Below are positions 345 through 10,970 of a stretch of DNA of 10,970 bases, in pieces. The position numbers and the translations under genes were made by a program. The notes under the pieces were generated by a model, which was not told where the DNA came from, made no database searches, and saw only the letters and a program-made list of their open reading frames with translations. Positions within the stretch are counted from its first letter, which is position 1. Each line of letters opens with the position of its first letter. Source of the DNA: a virus (lineage: Duplodnaviria > Heunggongvirae > Uroviricota > Caudoviricetes); IMG/VR virus record IMGVR_UViG_2579778535_000009, positions 1 to 10,970 of that record. One strand, given 5' to 3'.

Positions 345-2110
345 GACAGCAGCCCTCCCACCGTTTTACTGATATCGCTTACCGGCGCACCTGCTTTTTT
401 GTCACCCTGTTGCCTTGCCGCCTGACCAGCCAGCAAGCGAAGTTCACGATAAGCCTGACGCCCCGGAATACCAAAGAAGCGGAATTGCTGAACACGATGC
501 AGAGACGCCCAGGCATTCACGTATTCAGCGTTATCACGCAGAGATTTACCCGTTTCCTTGCTGATCTCGCCAGCCAGACCACGACCGTCAATGTTCTTAC
601 TGATATATTTCGCGATGTAGCTTGTCGGCGTTCCTTTGCGCGGGTTAATCAACTCAGACTTAAAGCGCGGCCCAGTGTTATTGCCCAGCTCCTCGCGGTC
701 TTCACGGATGGCAAACTTACGCAGTAATGCAGTAATGGCACGGCGGTCTTTTTTGCGCATGAAACACAACAGGTGCCAGTGAACTGTGCCGTCATGATGC
801 GGCTCAGCCACCCGCACGCCATACCAGCGCAACCCGGCTTTGTGCATCGCCTTACGAAATGCAGCAAACATGCCGACCAGATAATCGCTGCTTTGTCTTA
901 CCGTCGCGTTTGTCCAGGTCGGGTTTGGTCTGCCGTTATTTAGCGTGGAATGGAAACGCGACGGACAGGTGATAGTGTAGAAAACGGCGCAGTCACCGCG
1001 CATTTCCGCGATAAGCTCCAGACCTTTAACACAGGCCATCATCTCATTGCGGCGATGCGCAGGGTTGCTGCTGCTGGCGTTTACCACATCCTCCATGTCC
1101 AGCGTGTCGCCGTCTTCGTTCACCAGTTCATGAGAACGGAAAAACTCCAGCGACTTACGGCGCTGCTCACGTTTATGCATCACGGCTTCATAGCTGACAT
1201 AAGGAGATGCTTTTTTGCTGACCAGGCAAACAGCGCGCAACTGCTCTTCCCGCCATTCGCAACGCATCTTCCATAATTTCCGATACCACCAGTCGCCGCA
1301 CAACATACGCGCCAGCGAACCCGGAATGAGTTCATAGGGCACGGGTTTACGGCGGTTTCTTTTCCGACGGAGTTGCTCAAACGCAGGTGGGATGACATCC
1401 AGACGCAGGGTTTCCGCCGCCACCTTTTCCCATGTCTTGCGGATTTCTTCTGGCTTAACGTCATCGGTGGCATACAAATCGCCACAAGCTGCATCAAGGC
1501 ACATGCTCATATGCGCAGCTACCAGGGTGGACAGGCGTTTCACATGATCCTGACTCATTTCAGGCAGAATCAGCAGGCCGTCCAGCCCTTCATGGCTTGC
1601 CATAAAGCGAAAAGAAGTGGATAGCTGACTCTCGCGTACATGCTCCAGTCGTTCCAGACATGGCTTAATCGTCTCACGCAAATAGCGGGAATAAGCCTTT
1701 GGCCTGCCCAGGCTGCTGAAGTATTCAATACGTTGCATCAGCGGCTTGCTGATATGGGAAGGCTGGGCGTTGACGTCCGCCAGAATGACCATATCCGGAT
1801 TAAAACGCTGCTGCTCATGCGCCAGCTTTGCCCGACTAATGAGCTTATCCTGCTCCATTTCGCGCTGGACAGGATCACGGGATTCATTAAAGAAATAACG
1901 CTCCCAGACCTGATCACTCAGCGCCTCACGGCGCAGCTGTTCCTGCTCGTTATCGGCAGCGTACAGAGTGATCAGGTTTGAAAGCGCAGAAACCGGCGCA
2001 ACTTCCGCCGGGTCCAGATAAGGGTTAATGGCCTTTTTCGGGCTGTTCCATGAGAATGCTGCGGCGATCTCGTTAAAGCCGCTGCAGTTGTTCATATCAG
2101 CATGGCTCAT
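341..2110 (-). CDS. A: Phage replication initiation protein A (P2 gpA / 186 A family rolling-circle Rep endonuclease), possibly C-terminally shortened
   Basis: 589-aa ORF. Carries an HUH-type motif ([10 protein letters not shown]) and a paired-tyrosine motif ([13 protein letters not shown]) typical of P2 A-type nicking proteins. The start ATG overlaps the dam stop (ATGA). Only about 87 aa follow the YIAKY motif, far fewer than in P2 A as I remember it. Confidence 0.85.
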
Positions 2111-2964
2111 GCACGCACTCCGTACACGGCAGAACTATCCACGCCACACGAAGGATCAAATCCCACCCAGCAGCGCGGCCCGGAAACAGCGATGATTTCT
2201 GTTGCTGATTTACCCTCGCCAGCTGCCACACCGATGCTGCGTTTTACCTTGATATAGTGGTGAGTAAAATTGCGATACAGCGAACGAATCAGGGATGTGT
2301 CACTGTTAGAAACAATGACCGGATGTCCTTCAGATGATCGATGTTCAAGAACGGATGCCAGGTGATACTGGTCATCTTCAGTGAAACCATCAGTGTGATA
2401 GCCGGAAAACGTACCGTCATACGGCGGATCGCAATACACCACATCCCCCGCCTTCAACATCGCCAGCGTTTCATCAAAGCTGGTGCAGATAAACGTTGCC
2501 CGCTGGGCTTTTTCTGCAAATGCGCGAATTTCTTTTTCAGGGAAATACGGATTTTTATAATTACCGTAGGGAATGTTGAAATGCCCACTCTTGTTATAGC
2601 GACATAAACCACGGTAACCGTGACGATTGAGATACAGGAAATATACCGCTTTCATGAAATCAGTAATTTCAGTTGAGTAATTAAACTCCTGCCTTATGTT
2701 GTAATAAGCTACCTCCCTGTTTGCGATCTCAAATAAAACTCTGGCGCGAGATATAAACGATTCACAATCAGCGGCAACCTTTTTATAGAGGTTGATTAAA
2801 TCAGGATTAATATCCGCAACCAGATAGCTGGGGTAATCCGTCTCCATCATCACAGCACAGGAACCCGCGAAAGGTTCAACCAGTCGCGGGCCAGCAGGAA
2901 GATGTTTTTTCAGTTCGGACATTATGGCAGTTTTATTTCCCGCCCATTTCAGGATGGTGCTCAT
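2107..2964 (-). CDS. dam: DNA adenine methyltransferase (Dam family, N6-adenine MTase)
   Basis: The ORF track gives 2107-3024; the likely true start is the ATG at 2964 ([11 protein letters not shown]...), preceded by GGAGG. The N-terminus LKWAGNK...[11 protein letters not shown] and the DPPY motif ([10 protein letters not shown]) match E. coli Dam-type methyltransferases. The start overlaps the stop of the upstream zinc-finger ORF (ATGA). Confidence 0.85.
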
Positions 2965-3188
2965 ACAGCACCTCCGTTGTAATGTTTGCCTTTCAGCTCT
3001 GCAATTTCCTGACAGGTAATGCAAAGCTGCACACCCGGAATGGCACGGCGGCGTGCTGGCGGAATTGGCGCTTCACACTCAATGCAAAGCACGCGGGACA
3101 CGCCCGGCGTTTTGGCACGGGCAGCACGGATATGGCGTTGGCGTTCTTCTTCAACGCGCTGCTGTACGAGATCCATTGCATCAGCCAT
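2961..3188 (-). CDS. TraR/DksA-family C4 zinc-finger protein (phage early protein)
   Basis: 75 aa with CxxC-(17)-CxxC (CIECEAPIP...CITCQE) near the C-terminus, as in TraR/DksA-like phage proteins. Its start overlaps the upstream ORF stop (TAATG). Confidence 0.7.
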   Translation of the reverse strand: MADAMDLVQQRVEEERQRHIRAARAKTPGVSRVLCIECEAPIPPARRRAIPGVQLCITCQEIAELKGKHYNGGAV

Positions 3189-3427
3189 TAGTGAATCTCC
3201 TGCGCTTCGTTCTGGATTGCTTCAGCAGTCACACGAAGCAGTTCTGCCGCTTCGACGTGGGTTAGCTGGCGGGATGTGATATGACACGCCAGGCTATCAA
3301 GGCGAGCTGCCATTGCTTCAGCCCTTGCCCGGCGTTCTTCCAGACGAGCCTCTGTCAGTAAAATATTAAGCCCTGCGTCATCCGGTCCGGTTTTGGTCGT
3401 GAGGGTTTCAATATTACGCATAATCAA
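3188..3427 (-). CDS. Hypothetical small early-operon protein (79 aa)
   Basis: ORF in the co-directional early operon. AGGAG lies 8 nt upstream of the ATG at 3427. Translationally coupled to the downstream zinc-finger gene. No recognisable motif. Confidence 0.5.
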   Translation of the reverse strand: MIMRNIETLTTKTGPDDAGLNILLTEARLEERRARAEAMAARLDSLACHITSRQLTHVEAAELLRVTAEAIQNEAQEIH

Positions 3428-3487
3428 TTCTCCTGAATTTAGATAAAGGGATACTGGCGGGTTTACGCCATTAATTTCATTAGTTGG

Positions 3488-3829
3488 TTAATTCGGCATG
3501 GTTAGCCGTCTGGGAAATAAGCTCACCACTGCACGAAAATGATTCATTGCTTTAATCAACTCCCGCTTTTCGTCAGTGGTCAGCTCATTAATGCTGATGC
3601 TATGACGTTCAGCTGGAATTTTTGCCATAAAGAATATGGCAGCCAGTGCCCGTTTATTTTGTTCGCTATTAATATCCCGTGGATCACGCATATCTTTAAT
3701 AAACCGTTCAAGCTCTGACTCAATATTCAGACCAAAAACTTTCGCCCTTAACTCCGCAATATGATTAAGTCCATTCAGGCGTTCACCGGGTCTTAATGGA
3801 ACAGTCGCCGCAGCGCCTTCAATAGCCAT
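3488..3829 (-). CDS. Hypothetical early-operon protein (113 aa)
   Basis: ORF in the early operon with a G-rich SD upstream of the ATG at 3829. Overlaps the 3' end of the upstream 66-aa ORF by 37 nt. Function unknown. Confidence 0.5.
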   Translation of the reverse strand: MAIEGAAATVPLRPGERLNGLNHIAELRAKVFGLNIESELERFIKDMRDPRDINSEQNKRALAAIFFMAKIPAERHSISINELTTDEKRELIKAMNHFRAVVSLFPRRLTMPN

Positions 3830-3993
3830 TGGTTCCCCCGTTTTTTCGTTGATAGTTCTGCCAGCAATTCATCTTGCGAACGGCACGGATGCCAGCGTTT
3901 ACCATCCTCACCCATGATCCAGCCGTGACCGTAGTGCATTGCCGGACTTTGTTTTACCAGCAGCGATGCAAATGATGGTTCTTTCGTCAGCAT
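3793..3993 (-). CDS. Hypothetical small early protein (66 aa); positional analogue of 186 fil/dhr-type host-takeover genes
   Basis: The ORF track gives 3793-4023; the ATG at 3993 (MLTKEPSF...) is preceded by GAGGTG and avoids overlap with cII. Function inferred from position only. Confidence 0.45.
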   Translation of the reverse strand: MLTKEPSFASLLVKQSPAMHYGHGWIMGEDGKRWHPCRSQDELLAELSTKKRGNQWLLKALRRLFH

Positions 3994-4000
3994 AAGCACC

Positions 4001-4510
4001 TCACAGCAAACCGAATGAAGCACCGAGGCCAGTTACAGTATCAACTGCACTTGCCATCGCAGGATTAACCTGTAAACGGGCCTGCAATGAAACAGCAGCT
4101 AACGCCATCAGTCGTGTAACAGAGTTAATGCTGCTGATAGCATCACGACGACCTGCACTGGTTTTTACATCGCCAGATACCGCACCTGCAGCAACACGCC
4201 CGATCTCTGCGGTTGCACTCATGACGTAATGTGGCAGTTTCTCTTTTGCCACCTCATTAATCGGTACACATGGCAGGCAGTGAATCTGTGCCAGAAAACC
4301 GTCTACCAGCGTTGAATCTTCCGTCAGATCGGTAAGTAGCCAGATATCTGGCGCATTGAGCTGATGCGGTTGATCTGGGTTGAGTTTGTTTCGCAGAGTC
4401 TGGACATTCATTCCTGCACGTTCTGCCAGCTTCGCCATATTGTGACGAAGTGCAAAAGCTCTACAGGCTTCATCAAAATGCGGGTGTTTGGAAATCTTAT
4501 AATCAAACAT
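4001..4510 (-). CDS. cII: Phage regulatory protein CII (186 CII / CP76 family lysogeny-establishment activator)
   Basis: 169 aa, the same length as 186 CII. The sequence MFDYKISKHPHFDEACRAFALRHNMAKLAERAGMNVQTLRNKLNP... closely matches my recollection of 186 CII, including the HTH region. It is the second gene of the lytic operon. Confidence 0.8.
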   Translation of the reverse strand: MFDYKISKHPHFDEACRAFALRHNMAKLAERAGMNVQTLRNKLNPDQPHQLNAPDIWLLTDLTEDSTLVDGFLAQIHCLPCVPINEVAKEKLPHYVMSATAEIGRVAAGAVSGDVKTSAGRRDAISSINSVTRLMALAAVSLQARLQVNPAMASAVDTVTGLGASFGLL

Positions 4511-4542
4511 GCTACCCCCTTAGAAAGTTCTCATAATTGAAC

Positions 4543-4785
4543 TTACTTACCAACAATGACGCGGAAGTTGGAATGACCGAGGGATTCACGGACCTGATCG
4601 GTTTTGTACATTAAATAACGCAGGCTTACGCGGCCTTTGTTTTTTTCTTTCTTGACCATGTATTTAGCAAGCTGACCATGGTGAATTTTTTGATACACGG
4701 AGCCGCGGGAGATACCTTCCCATTCCGCGAACTCTGCAGGCGTAGCCATCTCTTTTGGTACACGAATTGAAATATCAGTGCTCAT
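4543..4785 (-). CDS. apl: Apl/Cox-type small HTH protein (excisionase / lytic-operon repressor), first gene of the early operon
   Basis: 80-aa ORF transcribed divergently from cI. HTH-like segment PAEFAEWEGISRGSVYQKIHHGQL. SD GGGAGA upstream of the ATG at 4785. The assignment is mainly positional, by analogy to the 186 apl and P2 cox layout. Confidence 0.55.
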   Translation of the reverse strand: MSTDISIRVPKEMATPAEFAEWEGISRGSVYQKIHHGQLAKYMVKKEKNKGRVSLRYLMYKTDQVRESLGHSNFRVIVGK

Positions 4786-4820
4786 AGTGCAGTATCTCCC
4801 GATTAAGGTTTGGTTTACGT

Positions 4821-4890
4821 CGTTTTATCTCGTTTTACTTGATTCAATATTTGATACATCGAGATACTACGATCCAATATTTGATACGTC
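4821..4890. repeat. Operator-like direct repeats in the cI/apl switch region: 20-bp repeats at 4841-4860 and 4871-4890 (GATYCAATATTTGATACRTC, 18/20 identical) and a tandem 10-bp repeat CGTTTTAYCT at 4821-4840
   Basis: Seen directly. The 20-bp copies are 30 bp apart. One overlaps the -35 and spacer of the pR candidate; the other lies just downstream of its -10. Confidence 0.45.
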
Positions 4891-4892
4891 AA
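4864..4892 (-). promoter_or_regulatory. Candidate sigma70 early lytic promoter (pR-like): -35 TTGACG (4892-4887), 17-bp spacer, -10 TAGTAT (4869-4864)
   Basis: Read on the minus strand as CCTGTTGACGTATCAAATATTGGATCGTAGTATCTC. Correct orientation and distance (about 70 nt) upstream of the apl start. Confidence 0.4.
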
Positions 4893-4904
4893 CAGGATTA
4901 AAAA

Positions 4905-5537
4905 ATGATACAGGTAAAGGTTGGAGAGAATACAGGGGGAAGAGAGGCTATCCATAGACTAATGGCAGCCTATGATTTCAAGTCCAGACAGCAACTTTGC
5001 GATCACTTAGGCGCATCAAAAAGCACCATGGCAAACAGATACTTAAGAGATAGTTTTCCTGCAGAGTGGGTGATTCAGTGCGCCTTGGAAACAGGAGTTT
5101 CTTTACTGTGGCTAACCACCGGACAGGGGGAGCCAGGTCCAAACATTGAACCTAAAAAAAATATCAATTCCGTGAACTCCAGCAAGGTTGTACCTCTTTC
5201 TGAACTAGTATCTCCTGAAATTGACAAGGCGACTCTCAACGGTGGTTTATTGGTCGATGCTGGAAAAGCAATCATTGATAGCAGCATACTCCCCTCAGAC
5301 TCAAGCAACCTACTGCTGGTGACTACTTCTGGTGATTCTTATTTAATAGATCGCAACCAAACACCACCAGTAAATGGTATGTGGTTAGTCGATATCGACG
5401 GGATAAAAAGCATCGTTAAATTGACTCGACTCCCGGGAAACAAATTAGTAGTGCATCAGGATGATTCATCGTTTGAGTGCGGTCTGGATGACATTGAGGT
5501 AGTAGGCCGCGCACTGAAAATCATTAAGAGCCTTTGA
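4905..5537 (+). CDS. cI: Immunity repressor CI (186-type)
   Basis: Divergent from apl and immediately upstream of int (cI stop TGA 5535-5537, int ATG 5539). HTH-like segment SRQQLCDHLGASKSTMANRYL. Start uncertain: the ATG at 4905 has AGGA 7 nt upstream; the ATG at 4962 would give 191 aa, close to the size of 186 CI. Confidence 0.7.
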   Translation: MIQVKVGENTGGREAIHRLMAAYDFKSRQQLCDHLGASKSTMANRYLRDSFPAEWVIQCALETGVSLLWLTTGQGEPGPNIEPKKNINSVNSSKVVPLSELVSPEIDKATLNGGLLVDAGKAIIDSSILPSDSSNLLLVTTSGDSYLIDRNQTPPVNGMWLVDIDGIKSIVKLTRLPGNKLVVHQDDSSFECGLDDIEVVGRALKIIKSL

Positions 5538-5538
5538 T

Positions 5539-6570
5539 ATGACCATCAGAAAACAGCCGAACGGAAAATGGTTGTGTGAGTGCTATCCCAATGGACGCAA
5601 TGGCAAGCGCGTGCGTAAGCAATTTGCCACGAAAGGCGAAGCCATTGCGTTTGAAAGCTTCACAATGGAAGAAGTGAATAAAAAACCGTGGTTGGGTGAA
5701 AAGGATGATCGGCGACGCCTATCAGAATTAATTGAGCTTTGGTATTCCCTGTATGGTCAGACACTCGCAGACCCCAAGCGCCTCATGGCGAAACTTAGAA
5801 TTATCTGTAATGGTCTAGGCGACCCCATCGCCTCTGAGCTGACAGCCGGAGACTTTACGAAATACCGCGAAGCACGGTTAAAAGGTGAAATACGAAATGA
5901 AGATGGCACGCTTATGTCGCCCGTTAAGCCCCGCACGGTAAACCTTGAACAGCGCAATCTATCATCGGTGTTCGGTACATTAAAAAAACTAGGACACTGG
6001 TCAGCACCAAACCCGCTGGCAGGACTTCCGACCTTCAAAATTGCCGAAGGTGAGCTGGCTTTTCTTTCCACGGACGAAATCAAGCGCCTGTTGGCGGCAT
6101 GTGCTGAATCTCAAAGCCCTAGCTTACTAATGATTGCAAAAATATGCCTAGCTACTGGCGCACGGTGGAGTGAAGCAGAAAATCTGCAGGGCCATCAGTT
6201 ATCCAAATACCGCATCACTTATACCAAGACGAAGGGCAAGAAAAACCGTACCGTGCCAATATCTCAGGATCTTTACAACGAACTCCCTAAAAACAGAGGA
6301 AGGCTATTCACCCCATGCAGAAAAGCCTTTGAACGGGCAGTAAAACGAGCTGGTATTGAACTGCCAGAGGGACAATGCACCCACGTTCTACGCCATACAT
6401 TCGCCAGCCATTTCATGATGAACGGCGGAAACATACTGGTACTGCGCGATATTTTGGGCCATGCCGATATAAAAATGACGATGATTTACGCCCATTTTTC
6501 TCCAGACCATCTGGAAGATGCAGTAACGAAAAACCCTTTGAACTTTATATACTTGTCGAATAACATGTAA
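5539..6570 (+). CDS. int: Tyrosine integrase (P2/186 Int family)
   Basis: 343 aa. The N-terminus (NGKWLCECYPNGRNGKRVRKQFATKGEAIAFE) resembles P2-type Int. Catalytic motifs ARWSE, HVLRHTFASH and MIYAHF (Tyr) are present. It reads toward the ssrA fragment. Confidence 0.85.
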   Translation: MTIRKQPNGKWLCECYPNGRNGKRVRKQFATKGEAIAFESFTMEEVNKKPWLGEKDDRRRLSELIELWYSLYGQTLADPKRLMAKLRIICNGLGDPIASELTAGDFTKYREARLKGEIRNEDGTLMSPVKPRTVNLEQRNLSSVFGTLKKLGHWSAPNPLAGLPTFKIAEGELAFLSTDEIKRLLAACAESQSPSLLMIAKICLATGARWSEAENLQGHQLSKYRITYTKTKGKKNRTVPISQDLYNELPKNRGRLFTPCRKAFERAVKRAGIELPEGQCTHVLRHTFASHFMMNGGNILVLRDILGHADIKMTMIYAHFSPDHLEDAVTKNPLNFIYLSNNM

Positions 6571-6610
6571 CTTATAATGTAAGTACACAAAAGTGATCTT
6601 AATCTTAAAT

Positions 6611-7606
6611 ATGAAACCTAATTTAATTTCACGTAAACAGTACCAACACCTCAAAAATGAGTTAAATAGACTTGAGAGCTTACCATATAGACGAGGAAAC
6701 AACCCAACCAACCTCAGAATATTAAAACTAAGAGAAGATCTAACAAACTCTCTTGTTGAATCCAGAAAAAGAAATTCAAAAAAAATTAATGGAGGAAATG
6801 TTAGCTGTATAATATGCAAGAAAAATTTCAAAAGTGCTCATGGCCTATATGAGCACTATCGCGCCAAGCATAGCAATATGATTGAACACCCTACCTCATT
6901 GTTTAATAAAGAAATAAATGGCAATACAACACTGCTTGAAAGCATTTCGCATCCTGTCACAAAAGGTATACCAATAGCAGAACACGATAAAAAAATATCA
7001 TCCATTACGCTAAACAGGGAAACTAAATATTTCAATGTAGATGCGTATAATCTGGCATGCCTTTCATTAACAAAAAGTGAAGCAATAAAAATCGCTAAAG
7101 ATGAATTATTATCAAGGCAGTTTCTTGGACAAAAAAACACTCTAGAACCTACTCTACCGCCAGTCATATTTATAAATCCCTCTGATACAATTAGTATACC
7201 AGTTGTCACAAAAGGCAATACTCATCTGCAAACAGTATTACAGCGTGACTCTGGCGAACAGGTTGACTTTAAAAAAAGGGTTCTAAAAAACTTCTCAAAT
7301 GTATGCGCAATAACAGGTTACAACCTCCCAGTATTGCAGGCATGTCACCTTGAACCATTTTCTCAGACCCAAAACCATAGAACCAACAATGGAATACCTC
7401 TTGAACCTACCCTTCATGCCTTGCTTGACCGAGGTCTACTAGCCATACATCCAGATAATTTAACTATTCATTTTGCTATCGATTGCTATTACAAAAATAT
7501 ATATGAAGGAAAAAATATCAAACCTCATAAGATTGATTTAGATAAAAATTCACTGCTAATAATTTGGAAGAACTTTCTTTTGAATGTTAAAAACAGCCAA
7601 CCGTAA
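6611..7606 (+). CDS. AT-rich cargo gene: protein with an N-terminal C2H2-type zinc finger and a C-terminal HNH-type (HNH_2-like) nuclease domain; candidate defence or accessory nuclease
   Basis: The ORF track gives a GTG start at 6593; the first ATG is at 6611. Zinc finger: CIICKKNFKSAHGLYEHYRAKH (C-x2-C-x12-H-x4-H). C-terminus: CAITGYNLPVLQACHLEPF...NNGIPLEPTLHALLDRGLLAIHPD, which matches the CAITG...HI.P...NGL.L...H.LFDRG pattern of HNH_2 nucleases as I recall it. Base composition is visibly much more AT-rich than the flanking phage genes. No obvious SD. Confidence 0.6.
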   Translation: MKPNLISRKQYQHLKNELNRLESLPYRRGNNPTNLRILKLREDLTNSLVESRKRNSKKINGGNVSCIICKKNFKSAHGLYEHYRAKHSNMIEHPTSLFNKEINGNTTLLESISHPVTKGIPIAEHDKKISSITLNRETKYFNVDAYNLACLSLTKSEAIKIAKDELLSRQFLGQKNTLEPTLPPVIFINPSDTISIPVVTKGNTHLQTVLQRDSGEQVDFKKRVLKNFSNVCAITGYNLPVLQACHLEPFSQTQNHRTNNGIPLEPTLHALLDRGLLAIHPDNLTIHFAIDCYYKNIYEGKNIKPHKIDLDKNSLLIIWKNFLLNVKNSQP

Positions 7607-7732
7607 GTTAGCCTAAAATTGGCGACAACTTGGCGGCAGAGCATTAAAAATGCGTAAAACGGATAAACACAGGATAATAGTAACACACTGTTTTTAAACG
7701 CAAACTACTGTTTTCATTGTATTAAAAATAGT

Positions 7733-7777
7733 ATGTAGGAATTTCGGACGCGGGTTCAACTCCCGCCAGCTCCACCA
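7733..7777 (+). ncRNA. ssrA: 3'-terminal 45 nt of tmRNA gene ssrA (T-arm and acceptor 3' strand ending CCA); attachment-site copy, not a full gene
   Basis: ATGTAGGAATTTCGGACGCGGGTTCAACTCCCGCCAGCTCCACCA matches the 3' end of E. coli ssrA as I recall it. Upstream sequence is AT-rich coding DNA with no tmRNA 5' domain (no GGGGCTGATTCTGG about 360 nt upstream). Confidence 0.8.
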
Positions 7778-7810
7778 ATTTTTGATATATTGAAGTTCAG
7801 TGAAGTCTAT

Positions 7811-7845
7811 CAAGCCCGCATGGAACCAGCCTTGCGGGCTTTTTT
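7811..7845 (+). terminator. Rho-independent terminator-like hairpin (AAGCCCGCA ... TGCGGGCTT followed by TTTTTT)
   Basis: Perfect 9-bp inverted repeat with a T-run, about 35 nt downstream of the ssrA CCA end and upstream of the intA start. Confidence 0.45.
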
Positions 7846-7902
7846 ACGTCTATAGTAGTCTACCGAGAATTGCTAGAATCTACTCGTTATGGCACCCTTT
7901 TT

Positions 7903-7946
7903 GGGACCCAACACAAAGGGTCCAAAACATGAGGGTCCCAAACATG
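7903..7946. repeat. Three copies of a GGG(A/T)CC(C)AAA motif at exact 15-bp spacing (7903, 7918, 7933), the first inverted relative to the others, overlapping the intA RBS and start
   Basis: Seen directly: TTGGGACCCAA cacaaa GGGTCCAAAACATG a GGGTCCCAAACATGG. Candidate protein-binding array. Confidence 0.4.
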
Positions 7947-9173
7947 GCAAAAATCGCTAAGAAGCTCACTGACACTGAAATCAAAAGCACCAAACCTGCC
8001 GAGAAAGAGGTTAACCTTTTTGACGGCGATGGTTTGCTCCTGCGAATCGCCCCCTTAGCGAAGGGAGGAAAGAAAAATTGGTATTTCAGATATGCAGTGC
8101 CTGTGACCAAAAAGCGAACTAAGGTGAGCTTAGGAACCTATCCTCACCTTACACTTGCGAAGGCACGAGCTTTACGTGATGAGTACTTGTCGTTGCTTGC
8201 AAATGGTATAGACCCACAAGTTCATAACACCCACAAAGCCAATGCCCTTAAGGATGCAACGGAACATACATTTCAAGCAGTAGCCAAGAAGTGGCTTGAT
8301 GAGAAAGTCAAAACGTCAGGCATCTCCCAGGATCATGCTAACGACATCTGGCGAAGCCTAGAGAGAAATATCTTTCCAACGTTGGGTGATACCCCCATTA
8401 AGGAGATTCGCCCTAAAATGCTTAAACAGCATTTAGACCCCATAGAAAAACGAGGTGTCCTTGAAACACTTCGCCGCGTCATATCCCGCCTGAATGAAAT
8501 TTTCCGCTATGCAGCAACAGAAGAACTCATAGAATTCAATCCGGCTGACAACCTGGGGCAACGGTTCAGCAAGCCAAAAAAACAGAATATGCCAGCATTA
8601 CCCCCTTCCGAACTCCCCCGCTTCCTGGTTGCTCTAAACAATGCTTCTATCCGTTTAGAAACAAGGCTACTGATTGAGTGGCAACTTCTCACATGGGTTC
8701 GCCCTGGTGAAGCTGTTCGCACAAGATGGTCAGATATTGATATAGAAACCAGCATGTGGAACATCCCGGCGGAGTTTATGAAAATGAAGAAGCCTCACAA
8801 AGTTCCACTGAGCAAAGAATCTTTGCGAGTCTTGGATTCAATGAAAGCCATCAGCGGGCATAGAGAGTGGGTTTTTCCCAGTATCAAAGCTCCACTCAAT
8901 CACATGCATGAACAAACAGCTAATGCGGCTATAATCCGTATGGGCTTCGGAGGTGAGCTTGTAGCTCATGGTATGCGATCAATCGCTAGAACGGCGGCTG
9001 AGGAGTGTGGCAAGTTTAGAACTGATGTCTTAGAAGCCGCCCTTGCCCACTCGAAAAAAGATGAAATAATTGCAGCCTACAATCGTGCAGAGTATCTCAC
9101 AGAACGTGTGGTTCTCATGCAATGGTGGAGTGACTATGTTTCGTCTCAAAAATACAAAGTTATTGCCGCATAA
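7944..9173 (+). CDS. intA: Tyrosine integrase, P4/CP4-57 IntA family (N-terminal DUF4102-like arm-binding domain)
   Basis: The ORF track gives 7800-9173, but that start would run through the terminator hairpin. The ATG at 7944 (MAKIAKKLTDTEIKSTKP...) has GAGGG 8 nt upstream. Conserved blocks DDIWRSLERNIFP, WQLLTWVRPGEA, HGMRSIARTAA, DVLEAALAH and YNRAEYL match my recollection of CP4-57 IntA. It lies immediately downstream of the ssrA 3' end, as in CP4-57. Confidence 0.85.
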   Translation: MAKIAKKLTDTEIKSTKPAEKEVNLFDGDGLLLRIAPLAKGGKKNWYFRYAVPVTKKRTKVSLGTYPHLTLAKARALRDEYLSLLANGIDPQVHNTHKANALKDATEHTFQAVAKKWLDEKVKTSGISQDHANDIWRSLERNIFPTLGDTPIKEIRPKMLKQHLDPIEKRGVLETLRRVISRLNEIFRYAATEELIEFNPADNLGQRFSKPKKQNMPALPPSELPRFLVALNNASIRLETRLLIEWQLLTWVRPGEAVRTRWSDIDIETSMWNIPAEFMKMKKPHKVPLSKESLRVLDSMKAISGHREWVFPSIKAPLNHMHEQTANAAIIRMGFGGELVAHGMRSIARTAAEECGKFRTDVLEAALAHSKKDEIIAAYNRAEYLTERVVLMQWWSDYVSSQKYKVIAA

Positions 9174-9455
9174 CTCTTCCATGATGGGTTAACTATCTTG
9201 ATTTATTTGAAGAATTAATGATCACACCATTAACCTATGTGGACTAAGCATAGCCATTTACAAATGGGTACCTTGAGGCCACATAACGAAAGCTGTCGGT
9301 CATATCAGCTAAATAATTCACATCTCTTCTCGATTATCATACACCTCGAAGAACTACCAAATTCGCTCTAATCAATGATAAAACAGTTGAATTCGGTTAA
9401 AATTTGATCAATTTTATCCTCTACATTGTATTGAATCATCCATGAGGTTTTGTGC

Positions 9456-10970
9456 ATGGCTAGCGGAAATGAAAAAAATCATAGAGTTAGGGTCGCACAG
9501 TACTTGAGGATGTCTACCGACCATCAGCAATATTCTTTACATAATCAGTCTGAATATATCAAAGATTATGCTGAAAAGAACAATATGGAAATCGCTTATA
9601 CCTACGATGATGCAGGTAAGAGCGGAGTCAGTATCGTAGGCAGGCATTCTTTGCAGCAGTTACTTAGCGATGTAGAACAAAAGAAAATAGATATACAGGC
9701 TGTATTATTTTATGATGTGAGCCGTTTTGGTCGTTTTCAAAATAGTGATGAAGCTGCATATTATTCCTTTCTATTTGAAAGAAATGGTGTAGATCTTATA
9801 TATTGTTCCGAACCTATACCCACTAAAGATTTCCCTTTAGAGTCCTCTGTTATACTGAATATAAAAAGATCAAGTGCTGCATATCACAGCAGGAATCTAT
9901 CTGAAAAGGTATTTATAGGGCAAGTAAATTTAATAAAGCTTGGTTATCATCAAGGCGGTATGGCTGGTTATGGGCTGAGACGTCTTTTAGTAGACGAAAA
10001 TGGCATAGCTAAAGAAATATTGAATTTCCGCAAAAGAAAGAGTATTCAAACAGATAGGGTAATATTAATTCCGGGACCAAAAAATGAAATAAAAATTGTA
10101 AATAGAATCTATGATCTCTTTATAGATAGTAACGTCCCAGAATTCATTATTGCTGAGAGATTAAATGAACAGAGCATACCTGCAGAAAATGGAACATCAT
10201 GGACTCGTGCAAAAATACATCAAATTTTGACAAATGAAAAATATATTGGAAACAACATATATAACAAAACCTCATCTAAACTAAAAAGTAGGCTTGTAAA
10301 AAACCCCAAACATGAATGGATTAGATGTGACAAGGCATATAAACCAATTATTTCAAAGAAAAAATATAATAAAGCTCAAGAAATAATTCAGCTCCGATCC
10401 ATTCATTTGACTAATGAAGATCTATTAGAAAAGCTAAAAGAAAAATTAGAATCTAATGGAAAACTATCAGGCTTTATCATTGATGAAGATGATACAGGCC
10501 CTTCATCTTCTGTTTATAGAACCCGATTTGGTGGTCTTTTAAGAGCATATACTTTGATTGGTTATAAGCCAGAACATGATTACAGCTATCTCCAAATAAA
10601 TGAAGCACTAAGATCATTTTACTCAGAGATAATTGAGGATTTTAAGGGCGAAATATTAAAAAGTAACTGTCATATAGACGAGTATAAATATTACCCAATG
10701 CTTTACATCAATGATGAGTTTTTAATTTCCGTCCTTGTTACTAAATGCATACATATGAAATCAGGTAAACTTAGATGGAAAGTCCGGTTTGATAACTCAC
10801 AGAAAGCAGACATAACAATTGTTATACGAATGAATTCACAAAATATTTCACCTCTTGATTTTTATATCATACCAAAGATTGAAAACGAATATAGTAAAAT
10901 GTGTATGTGGATTTGCCCCTATATTTCCAGACATCTGTTATCACTTAACCCATTACAAGCCCGCTGCCGC
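9456..10970 (+). CDS. Large serine recombinase (resolvase-type catalytic domain plus recombinase domain), AT-rich; 3' end beyond the window
   Basis: Not in the ORF track. I translated 505 codons from the ATG at 9456 to the window end with no stop; GAGG lies 8 nt upstream. The N-terminus VAQYLRMSTDHQ...YDDAGKSGVS...LQQLL...SRFGR carries serine-recombinase catalytic motifs. The segment ILIPGPKNEIKIVNRIYDLF...AERLNEQSIP...GTSWTRAKIHQILTNEKYIGNNIYNK fits the recombinase domain of large serine recombinases. Confidence 0.75.
   Translation, partial: MASGNEKNHRVRVAQYLRMSTDHQQYSLHNQSEYIKDYAEKNNMEIAYTYDDAGKSGVSIVGRHSLQQLLSDVEQKKIDIQAVLFYDVSRFGRFQNSDEAAYYSFLFERNGVDLIYCSEPIPTKDFPLESSVILNIKRSSAAYHSRNLSEKVFIGQVNLIKLGYHQGGMAGYGLRRLLVDENGIAKEILNFRKRKSIQTDRVILIPGPKNEIKIVNRIYDLFIDSNVPEFIIAERLNEQSIPAENGTSWTRAKIHQILTNEKYIGNNIYNKTSSKLKSRLVKNPKHEWIRCDKAYKPIISKKKYNKAQEIIQLRSIHLTNEDLLEKLKEKLESNGKLSGFIIDEDDTGPSSSVYRTRFGGLLRAYTLIGYKPEHDYSYLQINEALRSFYSEIIEDFKGEILKSNCHIDEYKYYPMLYINDEFLISVLVTKCIHMKSGKLRWKVRFDNSQKADITIVIRMNSQNISPLDFYIIPKIENEYSKMCMWICPYISRHLLSLNPLQARCR

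Follow-up and report, generated by a model that had tools for sequence, protein, structure and literature searches.

A serine recombinase gene truncated by IS2 behind an IntA-like integrase at ssrA, and its conserved association with two ParB-like genes

The window analyzed here, a DNA stretch of 10,970 nucleotides from an IMG/VR virus record, runs from the right end of a degraded P2-like prophage across a 49-nt ssrA repeat into the left end of a second island, which is likewise integrated at ssrA. In this island, the gene of an IntA-like tyrosine integrase is followed by a serine recombinase gene which is interrupted by an IS2 copy. In related loci, two ParB-like genes lie just past the point where the window ends, and the recombinase and the two ParB-like proteins form a trio. 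The best joint explanation is that the window has this anatomy, that the tyrosine integrase is the island integrase, and that the trio is an accessory module; I give it a probability of about 0.55. The features of the window are as follows.

7730 to 7778, plus strand: 49-nt 3′ fragment of ssrA (tmRNA), an att repeat between the P2-like prophage and the island (match to the ssrA 3′ end)
7812 to 7846, plus strand: GC-rich hairpin and then a T run (AAGCCCGC...GCGGGCTTTTTT), read from the sequence and identical after the ssrA fragment in locus L003
7944 to 9173, plus strand: IntA/P4-type tyrosine integrase of 409 aa (Pfam Arm-DNA-bind_3, Phage_int_M, and Phage_integrase)
9174 to 9455, no strand: AT-rich 282-bp spacer (GC 0.35) from the integrase to the recombinase (alignment of six copies from four genera)
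9236 to 9285, no strand: 50-bp imperfect palindrome, TATGTGG...CCATTT AC AAATGG...CCACATA (arm complementarity)
9456 to 10907, plus strand: native part of the recombinase gene, codons 1 to 484 of 518 (Pfam, comparison with WP_000146253, AlphaFold model, and fold searches)
10908 to 10970, no strand assigned: terminal 63 nt of IS2, an IS3-family element whose transposase genes here run on the opposite strand (identity to annotated IS2 ends)

An earlier note on this DNA had described a serine recombinase ORF of at least 505 codons at 9174 to 10970, open at the window end and missing from the ORF track. An ORF scan gave an unbroken plus-strand frame of exactly 505 codons from an ATG at 9456 to the window end at 10970, with a GAGG 8 nt 5′ of the ATG, while the segment from 9174 to 9455 proved to be intergenic. 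The frame is absent from the ORF list because frames running off the end are left out of it. The catalytic motifs that the note had recognized were borne out by Pfam, in which the protein matches Resolvase (PF00239; residues 14 to 152, E 7e-22, 78 bits against a cut-off of 23) and Recombinase (PF07508; residues 210 to 312, E 4.5e-22, far over the cut-off). In an alignment of 40 family members, the Y16-x-R18-M-S20-T-D-H-Q24 motif and D87/R90/R93 are invariant or near-invariant; the catalytic serine S20, D87, R90, and R93 are invariant, and Y16 and R18 are conserved in at least 90% of the homologues. The window copy keeps all of these catalytic residues. The ORF is a genuine serine recombinase gene that is truncated in the window. 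The recombinase is already annotated as a "recombinase family protein" in hundreds of genomes.

The truncation is due to IS2. All 63 nucleotides from 10908 to 10970 are identical to the terminal sequence of annotated IS2 copies, such as the one starting at 12287 in locus L001, which is 1331 bp long and has a 5-bp target duplication, CATGG. Elements of this kind in the IS3 family are marked by a terminal inverted repeat, a length of 1.3 kb, a frameshifted transposase, and a 5-bp target duplication; the window holds only the terminal 63 nt, and the IS2 body, the duplication, and the far junction lie outside it. Intact recombinase genes continue with ATGGAAACAAAC... where the window copy enters IS2. 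The native codons end at 484 of 518, so that 34 conserved C-terminal residues are lost. The earlier note would have given up its reading upon finding a stop just beyond the window with no recombinase domain, or a nonfunctional remnant. The domains are present, yet this copy is broken at codon 484, and the fused frame would stop after 28 IS2-derived codons. Since the 484 leftover codons differ from the intact counterpart WP_000146253 at a single residue (K279R), the IS2 truncation appears to be recent. Either the two ParB genes are now cut off from the window gene by IS2 or IS2 has removed them, and the recombinase-ParB-ParB module is probably inactive in the window strain. No complete Escherichia coli genome covers at least 80% of the region with the recombinase-IS2 junction, and no exact match to the junction was found in one-genome-per-species contigs. 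Other IS elements have hit the same gene: at least 10 strains associated with pigs and cattle have IS2 at its start codon, and an annotated IS3 lies in or beside the gene in one further strain. These repeated independent insertions suggest that the gene is dispensable.

Large serine recombinases such as phiC31, Bxb1, SPbeta SprA, TP901-1, CcrB, and TnpX have in common a catalytic domain with a nucleophilic serine, a long alpha-E helix, and a recombinase domain (RD), and the window protein has the RD after the alpha-E helix as well. Over about 325 residues, its structural model matches the integrases of SPbeta, Bxb1, and phiC31 (Foldseek E 6e-16 with SPbeta complexes), and a weak NCBIfam similarity links it to CcrB. 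The alignments to serine integrases stop around residue 330. In serine integrases, att-site synapsis and directionality are governed by a zinc ribbon that contains a coiled coil. Of the three domains for which the earlier note had proposed an HMM search, only the zinc ribbon is missing: Pfam gave no Zn_ribbon_recom match, and the recombinase sequence has no CxxC pairs. The domain with the zinc ribbon and coiled coil of serine integrases is thus absent from the recombinase. According to the AlphaFold model and fold searches, residues 318 to 518 instead comprise a homing-endonuclease-type helical repeat, a long helix, and a PD-(D/E)xK-like sheet. The homing-endonuclease repeat PF18780 was detected in 14 of 20 family members, and the predicted C-terminal domain has the restriction-endonuclease-like alpha/beta fold of the PD-(D/E)xK superfamily. 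The native part in the window encodes the catalytic domain, the recombinase domain, and most of this nuclease-fold domain. D452 and D468 are conserved, and the +2 position is a tyrosine (D468-Y-Y) rather than the lysine of the (D/E)xK motif. The C-terminal domain has 15-20% sequence identity to I-Ssp6803I, a PD-(D/E)xK homing endonuclease (PDB 2ost), from which it differs by the unconserved catalytic-motif lysine and by its fusion to a recombinase. Judging from the model, a homing-endonuclease-like domain takes the place of the zinc ribbon and the coiled coil, an unusual architecture in which a serine-integrase core is joined to such a fold. The window family also differs from the large serine recombinases in that it is always encoded with two ParB-like genes and in that it is not the sole recombinase of its element.

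The earlier note had placed the two recombinases next to ssrA. It was found that the window contains only the 49-nt 3′ fragment, which has an exact 35-nt match to the ssrA 3′ end at 7743 to 7777 and, over 7730 to 7778, a 98% match to the 3′ end of the complete ssrA in locus L003 (7022 to 7070). ARAGORN and Rfam gave 0 hits for a complete ssrA/tmRNA in the window; the Rfam search of the window and four related loci gave tmRNA and tRNA only. The same ssrA repeat flanks the P2-like prophage in L003. The degraded P2-like prophage sits between the true ssrA and the island, and the 49-nt fragment is the att repeat that it left. The real tandem element at ssrA is this upstream prophage, not the recombinase, and the picture of two recombinases at ssrA consists of tandem elements plus a fixed island backbone. 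Judging from its sequence, the hairpin at 7812 to 7846 may be an island-supplied terminator for the ssrA copy.

The integrase at 7944 to 9173 scores 445 bits against NCBIfam PRK09692 (cut-off 434), is 100% identical to WP_001384082 in loci L001 to L003, and belongs to an allele with about 78% DNA identity to the other common E. coli allele. Its start lies 166 nt downstream of the ssrA 3′ sequence, the same distance as after the complete ssrA in BL21, Klebsiella, and Enterobacter. An integrase gene beside the ssrA 3′ end is the arrangement of P4/IntA-type ssrA islands, and this enzyme is presumed to be the integrase of the ssrA island. The CP4-57-type ssrA islands of E. coli, known from K-12 and carrying the IntA integrase, likewise begin directly after ssrA with a P4/IntA-type integrase as the first gene and end before ypjA. 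The window-type island differs from them in that the recombinase-ParB-ParB operon, not alpA/yfj genes, follows the integrase and in that no attR repeat was found. The tmRNA gene is hotspot #9 of E. coli (PMC10121019). No repeat of the ssrA 3′ region of at least 12 nt was detected downstream in the 48-kb L003 locus, and because this far-end repeat is absent, the island is probably decayed or fixed.

As the earlier note stated, the recombinase gene comes directly after the integrase gene, the two being separated by the 282-bp spacer. Only weak promoter-like matches, not above those in shuffled sequence, were found in this spacer. Its palindrome has 18 of 24 complementary arm positions, a value reached by 0 of 1000 shuffles, and no second site of this kind is present in the 48 kb of the L003 locus. 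In Klebsiella and Enterobacter, each copy of the palindrome has three substitutions and a slightly lower symmetry, 16/24 by my own count. The palindrome is a candidate binding site for the recombinase or a regulator. No equivalent was found in distant loci; the "palindromes" that recur there come from a tandem repeat coding for MGT(V/I)V, with which a small divergent ORF begins.

Is the recombinase a newcomer beside the integrase? The note had proposed a nested or tandem second mobile element and, from the sharp difference in composition, separate acquisition of the two genes. In fact, the IntA-like tyrosine integrase, the 282-bp spacer, the 518-aa serine recombinase, ParB-like protein 1 (ParB1), and ParB/RepB-like protein 2 (ParB2) form a backbone whose order and spacer length are shared by E. 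coli, Klebsiella, Enterobacter, and Salmonella, each with cargo of its own. Since the stop and start codons of the recombinase, ParB1, and ParB2 genes overlap, the three look like one operon. Among 5,426 complete E. coli genomes, the integrase allele was found in 609, the recombinase in 632, and the ParB pair in 630 (631 places, all chromosomal), so that the trio occurs in about 12% of them. At this site, strains BL21(DE3) and REL606 have nothing but ssrA, the integrase, the trio, and an IS1 copy; strain WS4437A-1 is an example with cargo. The window-type integrase allele was never seen without the trio in E. coli genomes. Because the spacer is fixed in four genera and the three E. coli counts are similar, the recombinase does not seem to be a recently nested or tandem second element; the conservation points to a fixed, co-inherited pair rather than separate recent arrivals. 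The difference in composition is real (GC 0.33 in the recombinase ORF, 0.46 in the integrase gene), but it fits an old modular origin rather than separate acquisition in the window lineage, because the trio is found across phyla without the IntA-like integrase.

Beyond the enterobacteria, all of the 80 distant loci retrieved have the trio in the same order. Their amino-acid identity is about 45%, and they come from four phyla or more; the trio ranges from E. coli (including BL21) to Acidobacteria. Each ParB paralogue matches its own counterpart across these loci, and the flanks vary. The recombinase is present on 68 plasmid records; in pAtC58, the one inspected, two ParB/RepB genes follow it. 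A phage origin of the recombinase was considered and rejected, as 50,697 phage records contained only one unverified 7.5-kb fecal contig with it. The ssrA islands of Dehalococcoides carry a different six-gene module with the CcrB-like DsiB. Neither a paper nor an experiment on the recombinase family or on a module of a recombinase and two ParBs was found in the literature searched, nor was any functional description of the trio.

Both ParB proteins combine a ParB N-terminal domain, which has a GxxR and ENxxR type motif, with a RepB or HTH region. ParB1 shares alignable N-terminal and HTH domains with Spo0J, ParB, Noc, and KorB (residues 8 to 188 in the case of Spo0J), and ParB2 aligns with Noc. 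Like the CTP-dependent clamps ParB, Noc, and KorB, they have the ParB N-terminal domain. Unlike these clamps, they are two diverged paralogues always paired with a recombinase and have no ParA partner: no ParA was found in the operon at any examined locus, and no parS was identified. The ParB pair is therefore not a classical partition system. In integrative elements, ParB-like proteins are known that serve as regulators and not as partition factors; a comparable case is BisD of ICEclc (PMC12409273).

I infer that integration of the island at ssrA is the work of the tyrosine integrase and not of the serine recombinase. A case in point is L042, an 11.2-kb tRNA-Ala island with a 49-nt direct repeat at both ends, which contains its own tyrosine integrase, an HTH_17 gene, and the trio. 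Because a tyrosine integrase stands beside the trio in this island, the recombinase is probably not the integrating enzyme. A role of the serine recombinase as a tRNA- or tmRNA-targeting integrase was rejected, since only about 12 of the 80 distant loci have a tRNA within 8 kb and L042, the sole fully delimited island, has its own tyrosine integrase. No att sites for the recombinase were found; the trio-bearing elements have their own tyrosine integrase and tRNA/tmRNA repeats.

As to what the trio does, I tentatively propose, at somewhat less than even odds, an accessory module that combines site-specific recombination with ParB-type DNA clamps. Its task would be to stabilize the mobile element or to regulate it, for instance through the resolution or processing of an excised or multimeric form, and the two ParB paralogues would load on a nearby site. 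SGI1, with ResG (S027), and RK2/RP4, with the multimer-resolution operon parCBA, are elements in which a serine resolvase accompanies the main integration or replication functions and presumably stabilizes the element. By analogy, the module would resemble ResG and such resolvase-containing plasmid stability operons, in which a serine recombinase other than the integrase of the element may form a small operon with DNA-binding or nuclease proteins. RK2 ParB is staphylococcal-nuclease-like, unlike the ParBs of the trio. In contrast to the elements that bear ResG or parCBA, the window-type islands have no recognizable replication genes, so that the need for a resolvase is puzzling, which counts against the maintenance role. 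Neither a recombination partner site, a parS-like site, nor an excision product was identified. The nuclease-like domain and the defense-rich surroundings, which fit a DNA-targeting role equally well, also count against maintenance, and so do the independent IS insertions, the lack of a ParA gene, and the absence of a counterpart to the spacer palindrome elsewhere in the island or in distant loci.

In such a role, the trio would be island cargo, a stand-alone anti-phage or anti-plasmid defense system or a homing-type selfish cassette, with the ParB-type proteins recognizing DNA and the recombinase-homing-endonuclease-like fusion cutting or rearranging it. I consider this unlikely, but it draws on several observations. 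Besides the I-Ssp6803I-like fold with its homing-endonuclease repeat and the strict three-gene co-conservation over at least four phyla, the neighbors of the trio in several phyla are mostly defense or toxin genes: NACHT, RelA/SpoT, Mrr, HNH/ScoMcrA, and RloB with AAA_15, and further AbiEii, Fic, MNT/HEPN, ParB-methylase, and DUF499. The trio also makes up about a third of the content of L042. For E. coli islands in which defense genes are accompanied by integrases or recombinases only, mobilization has been described as unclear (PMC10121019). However, defense genes are common in any island, and co-location is weak evidence. PADLOC 2.0 gave no defense-model match to the recombinase or ParB1, and only a weak 24-bit match of ParB2, via its ParB N-terminal domain, to a methyltransferase model. 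The canonical (D/E)xK lysine is absent, with D452 and D468-Y-Y conserved instead, and the fully conserved serine-recombinase active site argues for recombination, not simple cleavage.

If the recombinase instead served as integrase or transposase to move the cargo of another element, one that is nested in the IntA island or lies in tandem with it, its serine-integrase-like N-terminal 325 residues, the 33% GC of the trio against 46% in the integrase gene, and the very different contexts of the trio in distant taxa and on plasmids would be understandable. In the argW island of locus L004, moreover, the shared 4.2-kb block with the trio begins within one integrase remnant, and another integrase 3′ fragment comes after it, so that the block lies between two integrase 3′ remnants. 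I regard a separate element as improbable all the same. The recombinase is tied to one integrase allele at a fixed distance in four genera, it is essentially single-copy, as the 631 places of the ParB pair in 630 genomes indicate, and it lacks the domain that governs att-site synapsis. The search that the note had suggested for flanking direct or inverted repeats found none bounding the trio, and no further ssrA 3′ fragment downstream in L003. The tRNA repeats of L042 are typical of its own tyrosine integrase. Common element ends were rejected, since the flanks shared within closely related pairs of distant loci vary widely in length. Insertion of the trio into the integrase 3′ end with a surrogate 3′ end was also rejected: identity is uniform across the L004 block, and no such integrase allele lacks the trio. 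In the ssrA islands, the conserved backbone does not stop at the supposed right end but goes on into a fixed remnant of IS3, which likewise counts against insertion.

It is similarly doubtful that the trio is an autonomous and ancient three-protein machine of a kind so far undescribed, in which a heterotypic pair of ParB-type CTP clamps would direct or license a recombinase whose zinc ribbon and coiled coil have given way to a homing-endonuclease-like PD-(D/E)xK domain, and which would act on foreign or competing DNA, in defense or against plasmids, or spread as a homing-like cassette among islands and plasmids.

Switching or shuffling of the downstream cargo by a DNA invertase, which the earlier note had entertained and which the variable, mostly defense-type cargo beginning a few hundred bp after the trio in related genomes might suggest, is very improbable, since no inverted repeat pair surrounds any segment near the trio in a 20-kb scan, the best E. 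coli genome matches are single collinear pieces (multi-piece matches being IS insertions), the cargo differs by gene content with no orientation variants, and the protein is not of the small Hin/Gin/Pin type. Members of the small resolvase/invertase group (Tn3, gamma-delta, and Hin/Gin/Pin) have about 180-200 aa, a C-terminal HTH directly after the catalytic domain, and adjacent res or inverted sites; the window family has 518 aa with an RD, and invertase models match it weakly and partially (Mpi, 24 bits against a cut-off of 272 in NCBIfam).

By itself, the window is a modest result, a recently IS2-broken copy of a widely annotated gene. The wider point is the strict conservation of the three-gene module beside defense cargo, from a sizable share of complete E. 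coli genomes to other phyla. If the trio stabilizes or regulates defense islands or targets DNA, it would bear on the maintenance and exchange of the islands that have only integrases or recombinases (PMC10121019). E. coli BL21(DE3) retains exactly the four backbone genes, followed by an IS1 copy and then glaH, and offers a clean genetic test bed.

The serine recombinase gene that the earlier note had placed directly downstream of the tyrosine integrase gene is real. Six-frame translation gives a single open frame from an ATG at 9456, preceded by GAGG, to 10970 (505 residues without a stop). Pfam searches of this ORF found Resolvase at aa 14-152 (E 7e-22) and Recombinase at aa 210-312 (E 4.5e-22), and the catalytic residues Y16, R18, S20, Q24, D87, R90, and R93 are invariant or nearly so in an alignment of 40 family sequences. 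The composition also differs as described, with a GC content of about 0.30-0.38 along the ORF versus about 0.46 in the integrase gene. The ORF listing has nothing on the plus strand after the integrase ORF ending at 9173, because ORFs running off the window are omitted from it. Thus, the core observation holds, yet the copy in the window is broken, and the interpretation placed on it was right in part.

In a megablast search of 5,426 complete E. coli genomes, 9174-10911 matches at 99.9% genomes with an intact gene of 518 codons, annotated as "recombinase family protein" (WP_000146253). In the alignment, the window departs from the intact gene after ...AAAATGTGTATG and goes on with TGGATTTGCCCCTATATTTCCAGACA..., and 10908-10970 is identical to the end of an annotated 1331-bp IS2. 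Thus, the native codons are 1-484. The possibility had been raised that the ORF stops just past the window and lacks a recombinase domain, or is a pseudogene remnant; the domains are present, and the copy is indeed cut at codon 484, after which the frame would run through 28 IS2-derived codons to a stop, giving a 512-aa fusion. The cut falls within the last strand of the C-terminal domain, and the 34 residues lost are conserved in the family (consensus N-x3-LD-x-YR-x3-L). Since a single nucleotide and a single residue (K279R) separate the 484 retained codons from the intact allele, the insertion is recent. The junction was found in none of the 5,426 genomes and had no exact match among species-representative contigs. 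The end of the window is probably an assembly break within the IS2 repeat. In at least 10 other strains, associated with pigs and cattle, an IS2 lies exactly at the recombinase start codon with a CATGG duplication, and in a chicken strain an IS3 copy is annotated as splitting the gene. These insertions are exemplified by 12287-13617 of L001, an E. coli ssrA island, and by NZ_CP087564.1. Together with the codon-484 IS2 of the window, three separate IS events have struck this gene.

In the AlphaFold model of the recombinase (pLDDT 87), about 325 residues align with integrase structures from SPbeta, Bxb1, and phiC31 (E 6e-16 to 1e-10), and the alignments go no further. A zinc ribbon, which had also been suggested as a search target, gave no match, and the protein has no Cys pairs. 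Residues 318-518 have a homing-endonuclease-like PD-(D/E)xK fold. In 14 of 20 family members, the first ~47 residues of this region gave a match to PF18780, the "homing endonuclease associated repeat". The acidic residues D452 and D468 are conserved, but the motif is D-Y-Y instead of (D/E)-x-K; therefore, nuclease activity cannot be inferred for this domain.

ARAGORN and Rfam found no tmRNA in the window. What had been taken as a neighboring ssrA is a 3′ fragment, the last 49 nt (7730-7778), and not a complete gene. The closest complete genome, WS4437A-1 (99.0% identity over 380-10911), has a complete ssrA, a P2-like prophage, the same 46-49-nt ssrA repeat, the integrase, the recombinase, two ParB genes, cargo, and ypjA in this order. 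Thus, the tandem second element at ssrA is the prophage and not, as proposed, the recombinase. Within 4905-7606, the window has the genes for the CI repressor of the prophage and for its P2-type integrase, and a cargo gene, the last being:

6593-7606, + strand: AT-rich HNH endonuclease gene, 337 aa (PF13391; PADLOC HNH models)

This gene is flanked by the P2-type integrase gene and the ssrA repeat, and in strain 300709 an anti-phage dCTP deaminase occupies the same slot. Thus, the prophage cargo at this position varies. Window 1-381 matches the prophage tail/gpD region (8746-9126 of L003, a 48-kb E. coli locus with a complete ssrA, 97%) and directly abuts the replication-endonuclease (gpA) gene, which the junction shortens to 589 aa. 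Thus, the window prophage has lost a further 9.9 kb or so from its interior, and the absent sequence exists in WS4437A-1.

The integrase (409 aa; PRK09692, 445 bits) and the recombinase directly follow ssrA in E. coli, Klebsiella quasipneumoniae, Enterobacter asburiae, and Salmonella, with the same 282-bp spacer between them. On the 3′ side of the recombinase are two 298-aa genes, each with a start overlapping the preceding stop: ParB1 (ParB_N and RepB) and ParB2 (RepB and a weak ParB_N). The N-terminal and HTH domains of ParB1 can be aligned with those of Spo0J, ParB, Noc, and KorB; ParB2 aligns with Noc. Both keep a GxxR-type motif, and no ParA accompanies the pair. The integrase allele with its spacer is present in 609 of the E. 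coli genomes, the recombinase in 632, and the ParB pair in 630 (631 places, all chromosomal). The content past ParB2 varies by genome: NACHT and RelA/SpoT, Mrr and HNH/ScoMcrA, UvrA-like and ThiF, HNH_5 and DUF5677, or a relaxase. In all ssrA-type islands compared, from four genera, a fixed IS3-family transposase remnant begins about 48 bp past ParB2 (31465-31800 in L003, with the equivalent position in L012-L018). Thus, the conserved backbone reaches past the trio before the cargo diverges. A 93.6%-identical, 4.2-kb copy of this block lies inside an argW island (L004) that has its own IntS-like integrase, and there the block carries a 5′-truncated, frameshifted remnant of the integrase gene. 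Two integrase 3′ remnants, alike in orientation, border the L004 trio: a left one at 9175-9715 (aa 225-409, ~90% identical, frameshifted) and a right one at 13392-13673 (aa 316-409, 71% identical), which begins at most 5 bp from the end of the conserved block.

Is the trio confined to Enterobacteria? A profile search across species, each represented by one genome, found 80 loci with ~45%-identical recombinases in Alpha-, Beta-, and Gammaproteobacteria, Acidobacteriota, Planctomycetota, and Bdellovibrionota. Every distant locus long enough to show them has ParB1 and then ParB2 orthologues, and the stops and starts overlap in most cases. Among the large serine recombinases, this family is an uncharacterised variant that is tied to two ParB-like proteins in a conserved operon. 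In a representative library, 1,350 clusters match the recombinase at E below 1e-30. It occurs on 68 plasmid records; in the one inspected, pAtC58, the recombinase and two ParB/RepB genes lie between an AbiEii pair and a Fic gene. A phage collection gave one unverified match. Genes downstream of the distant trios include ParB-methylase fusions, DUF499, DUF6361, helicases, and Fic. Otherwise, the flanks show no relationship to one another, and the sole recurrent neighbor is a small divergent upstream ORF (33 loci) with no Pfam match, which the enterobacterial version lacks. Examples are 7488-7907 (−) of the distant locus L020, with 32 others, and ATU_RS24150 of pAtC58. At the 5′ end of this ORF, the stretch coding for a tandem MGT(V/I)V peptide repeat resembles a DNA palindrome. 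A GC-rich non-coding element of roughly 120 nt lies about 40-170 nt past ParB2 in L020, L025, L030, L031, L047, and others, with the motif GGGGACCCGGACCC...GCGGGGACCGCAGGAGACGCC...GGTGGGGATGGCGGCGAACCCG... It has no Rfam match and no E. coli counterpart; it is conserved in 12 of 14 aligned Rhodobacterales loci, more strongly than its surroundings.

The serine recombinase is probably not the island integrase. In locus L042, a 49-nt direct repeat of the tRNA-Ala 3′ end bounds an 11.2-kb island with a tyrosine integrase and an HTH_17 (AlpA/Xis-type) gene by the tRNA, followed by the trio, an MNT/HEPN pair, and an SRAP gene. This layout follows the same logic as the E. coli island. Closely related pairs of distant loci share flanks of very different lengths, and therefore the trio lacks fixed element ends; the flanking repeats proposed as a delimiting sign, direct or inverted, do not bound it in E. 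coli. The spacer has a 50-bp imperfect palindrome (9236-9285). Its arms are complementary at 18 of 24 positions, and 0 of 1000 shuffles gave as high a value. The palindrome is unique within the island and resembles a serine-recombinase site in size and symmetry, which makes it a candidate site and a lead only. The symmetry falls to 16/24 (manual count) in the Klebsiella and Enterobacter copies, and no equivalent was found in the distant loci.

Integration at ssrA would be handled by the tyrosine integrase, with the trio as an accessory module. I tentatively prefer a module for maintenance or regulation that combines recombination with a ParB clamp (probability about 0.35-0.4); plasmid stability operons that include a resolvase, and ResG of SGI1, are proposed analogues of such a module. 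The main rival, a stand-alone DNA-targeting or selfish system, is unlikely: the nuclease-like fold, the neighborhoods rich in defence genes, and the small islands with the trio as main content point to it, but PADLOC has no match. If true, an autonomous DNA-targeting machine would be a finding of considerably more interest. A nested element with the recombinase as its own integrase fits the data less well and is quite improbable, and an inversion switch, also a poorer fit, is hardly credible.

The literature searched has no description of the recombinase protein or the trio module. The gene in the window is ordinary in being annotated in hundreds of genomes. A survey of E. coli defence islands lists the tmRNA locus as hotspot #9 and points out islands that have integrase or recombinase genes only and an unclear mode of mobilisation (PMC10121019). 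Small serine recombinases proposed as defence-locus markers (PMC13552941) belong to another family, and the CcrB-like serine integrase of Dehalococcoides ssrA islands lies within a six-gene module (PMC3146451) that differs from the trio. BL21(DE3) has ssrA, the integrase, the recombinase, two ParB genes, IS1, and then glaH (L102 10403-16875). This bare backbone makes it a ready-made minimal test strain. E. coli B strains have lost everything else in the island, along with the ypjA region.
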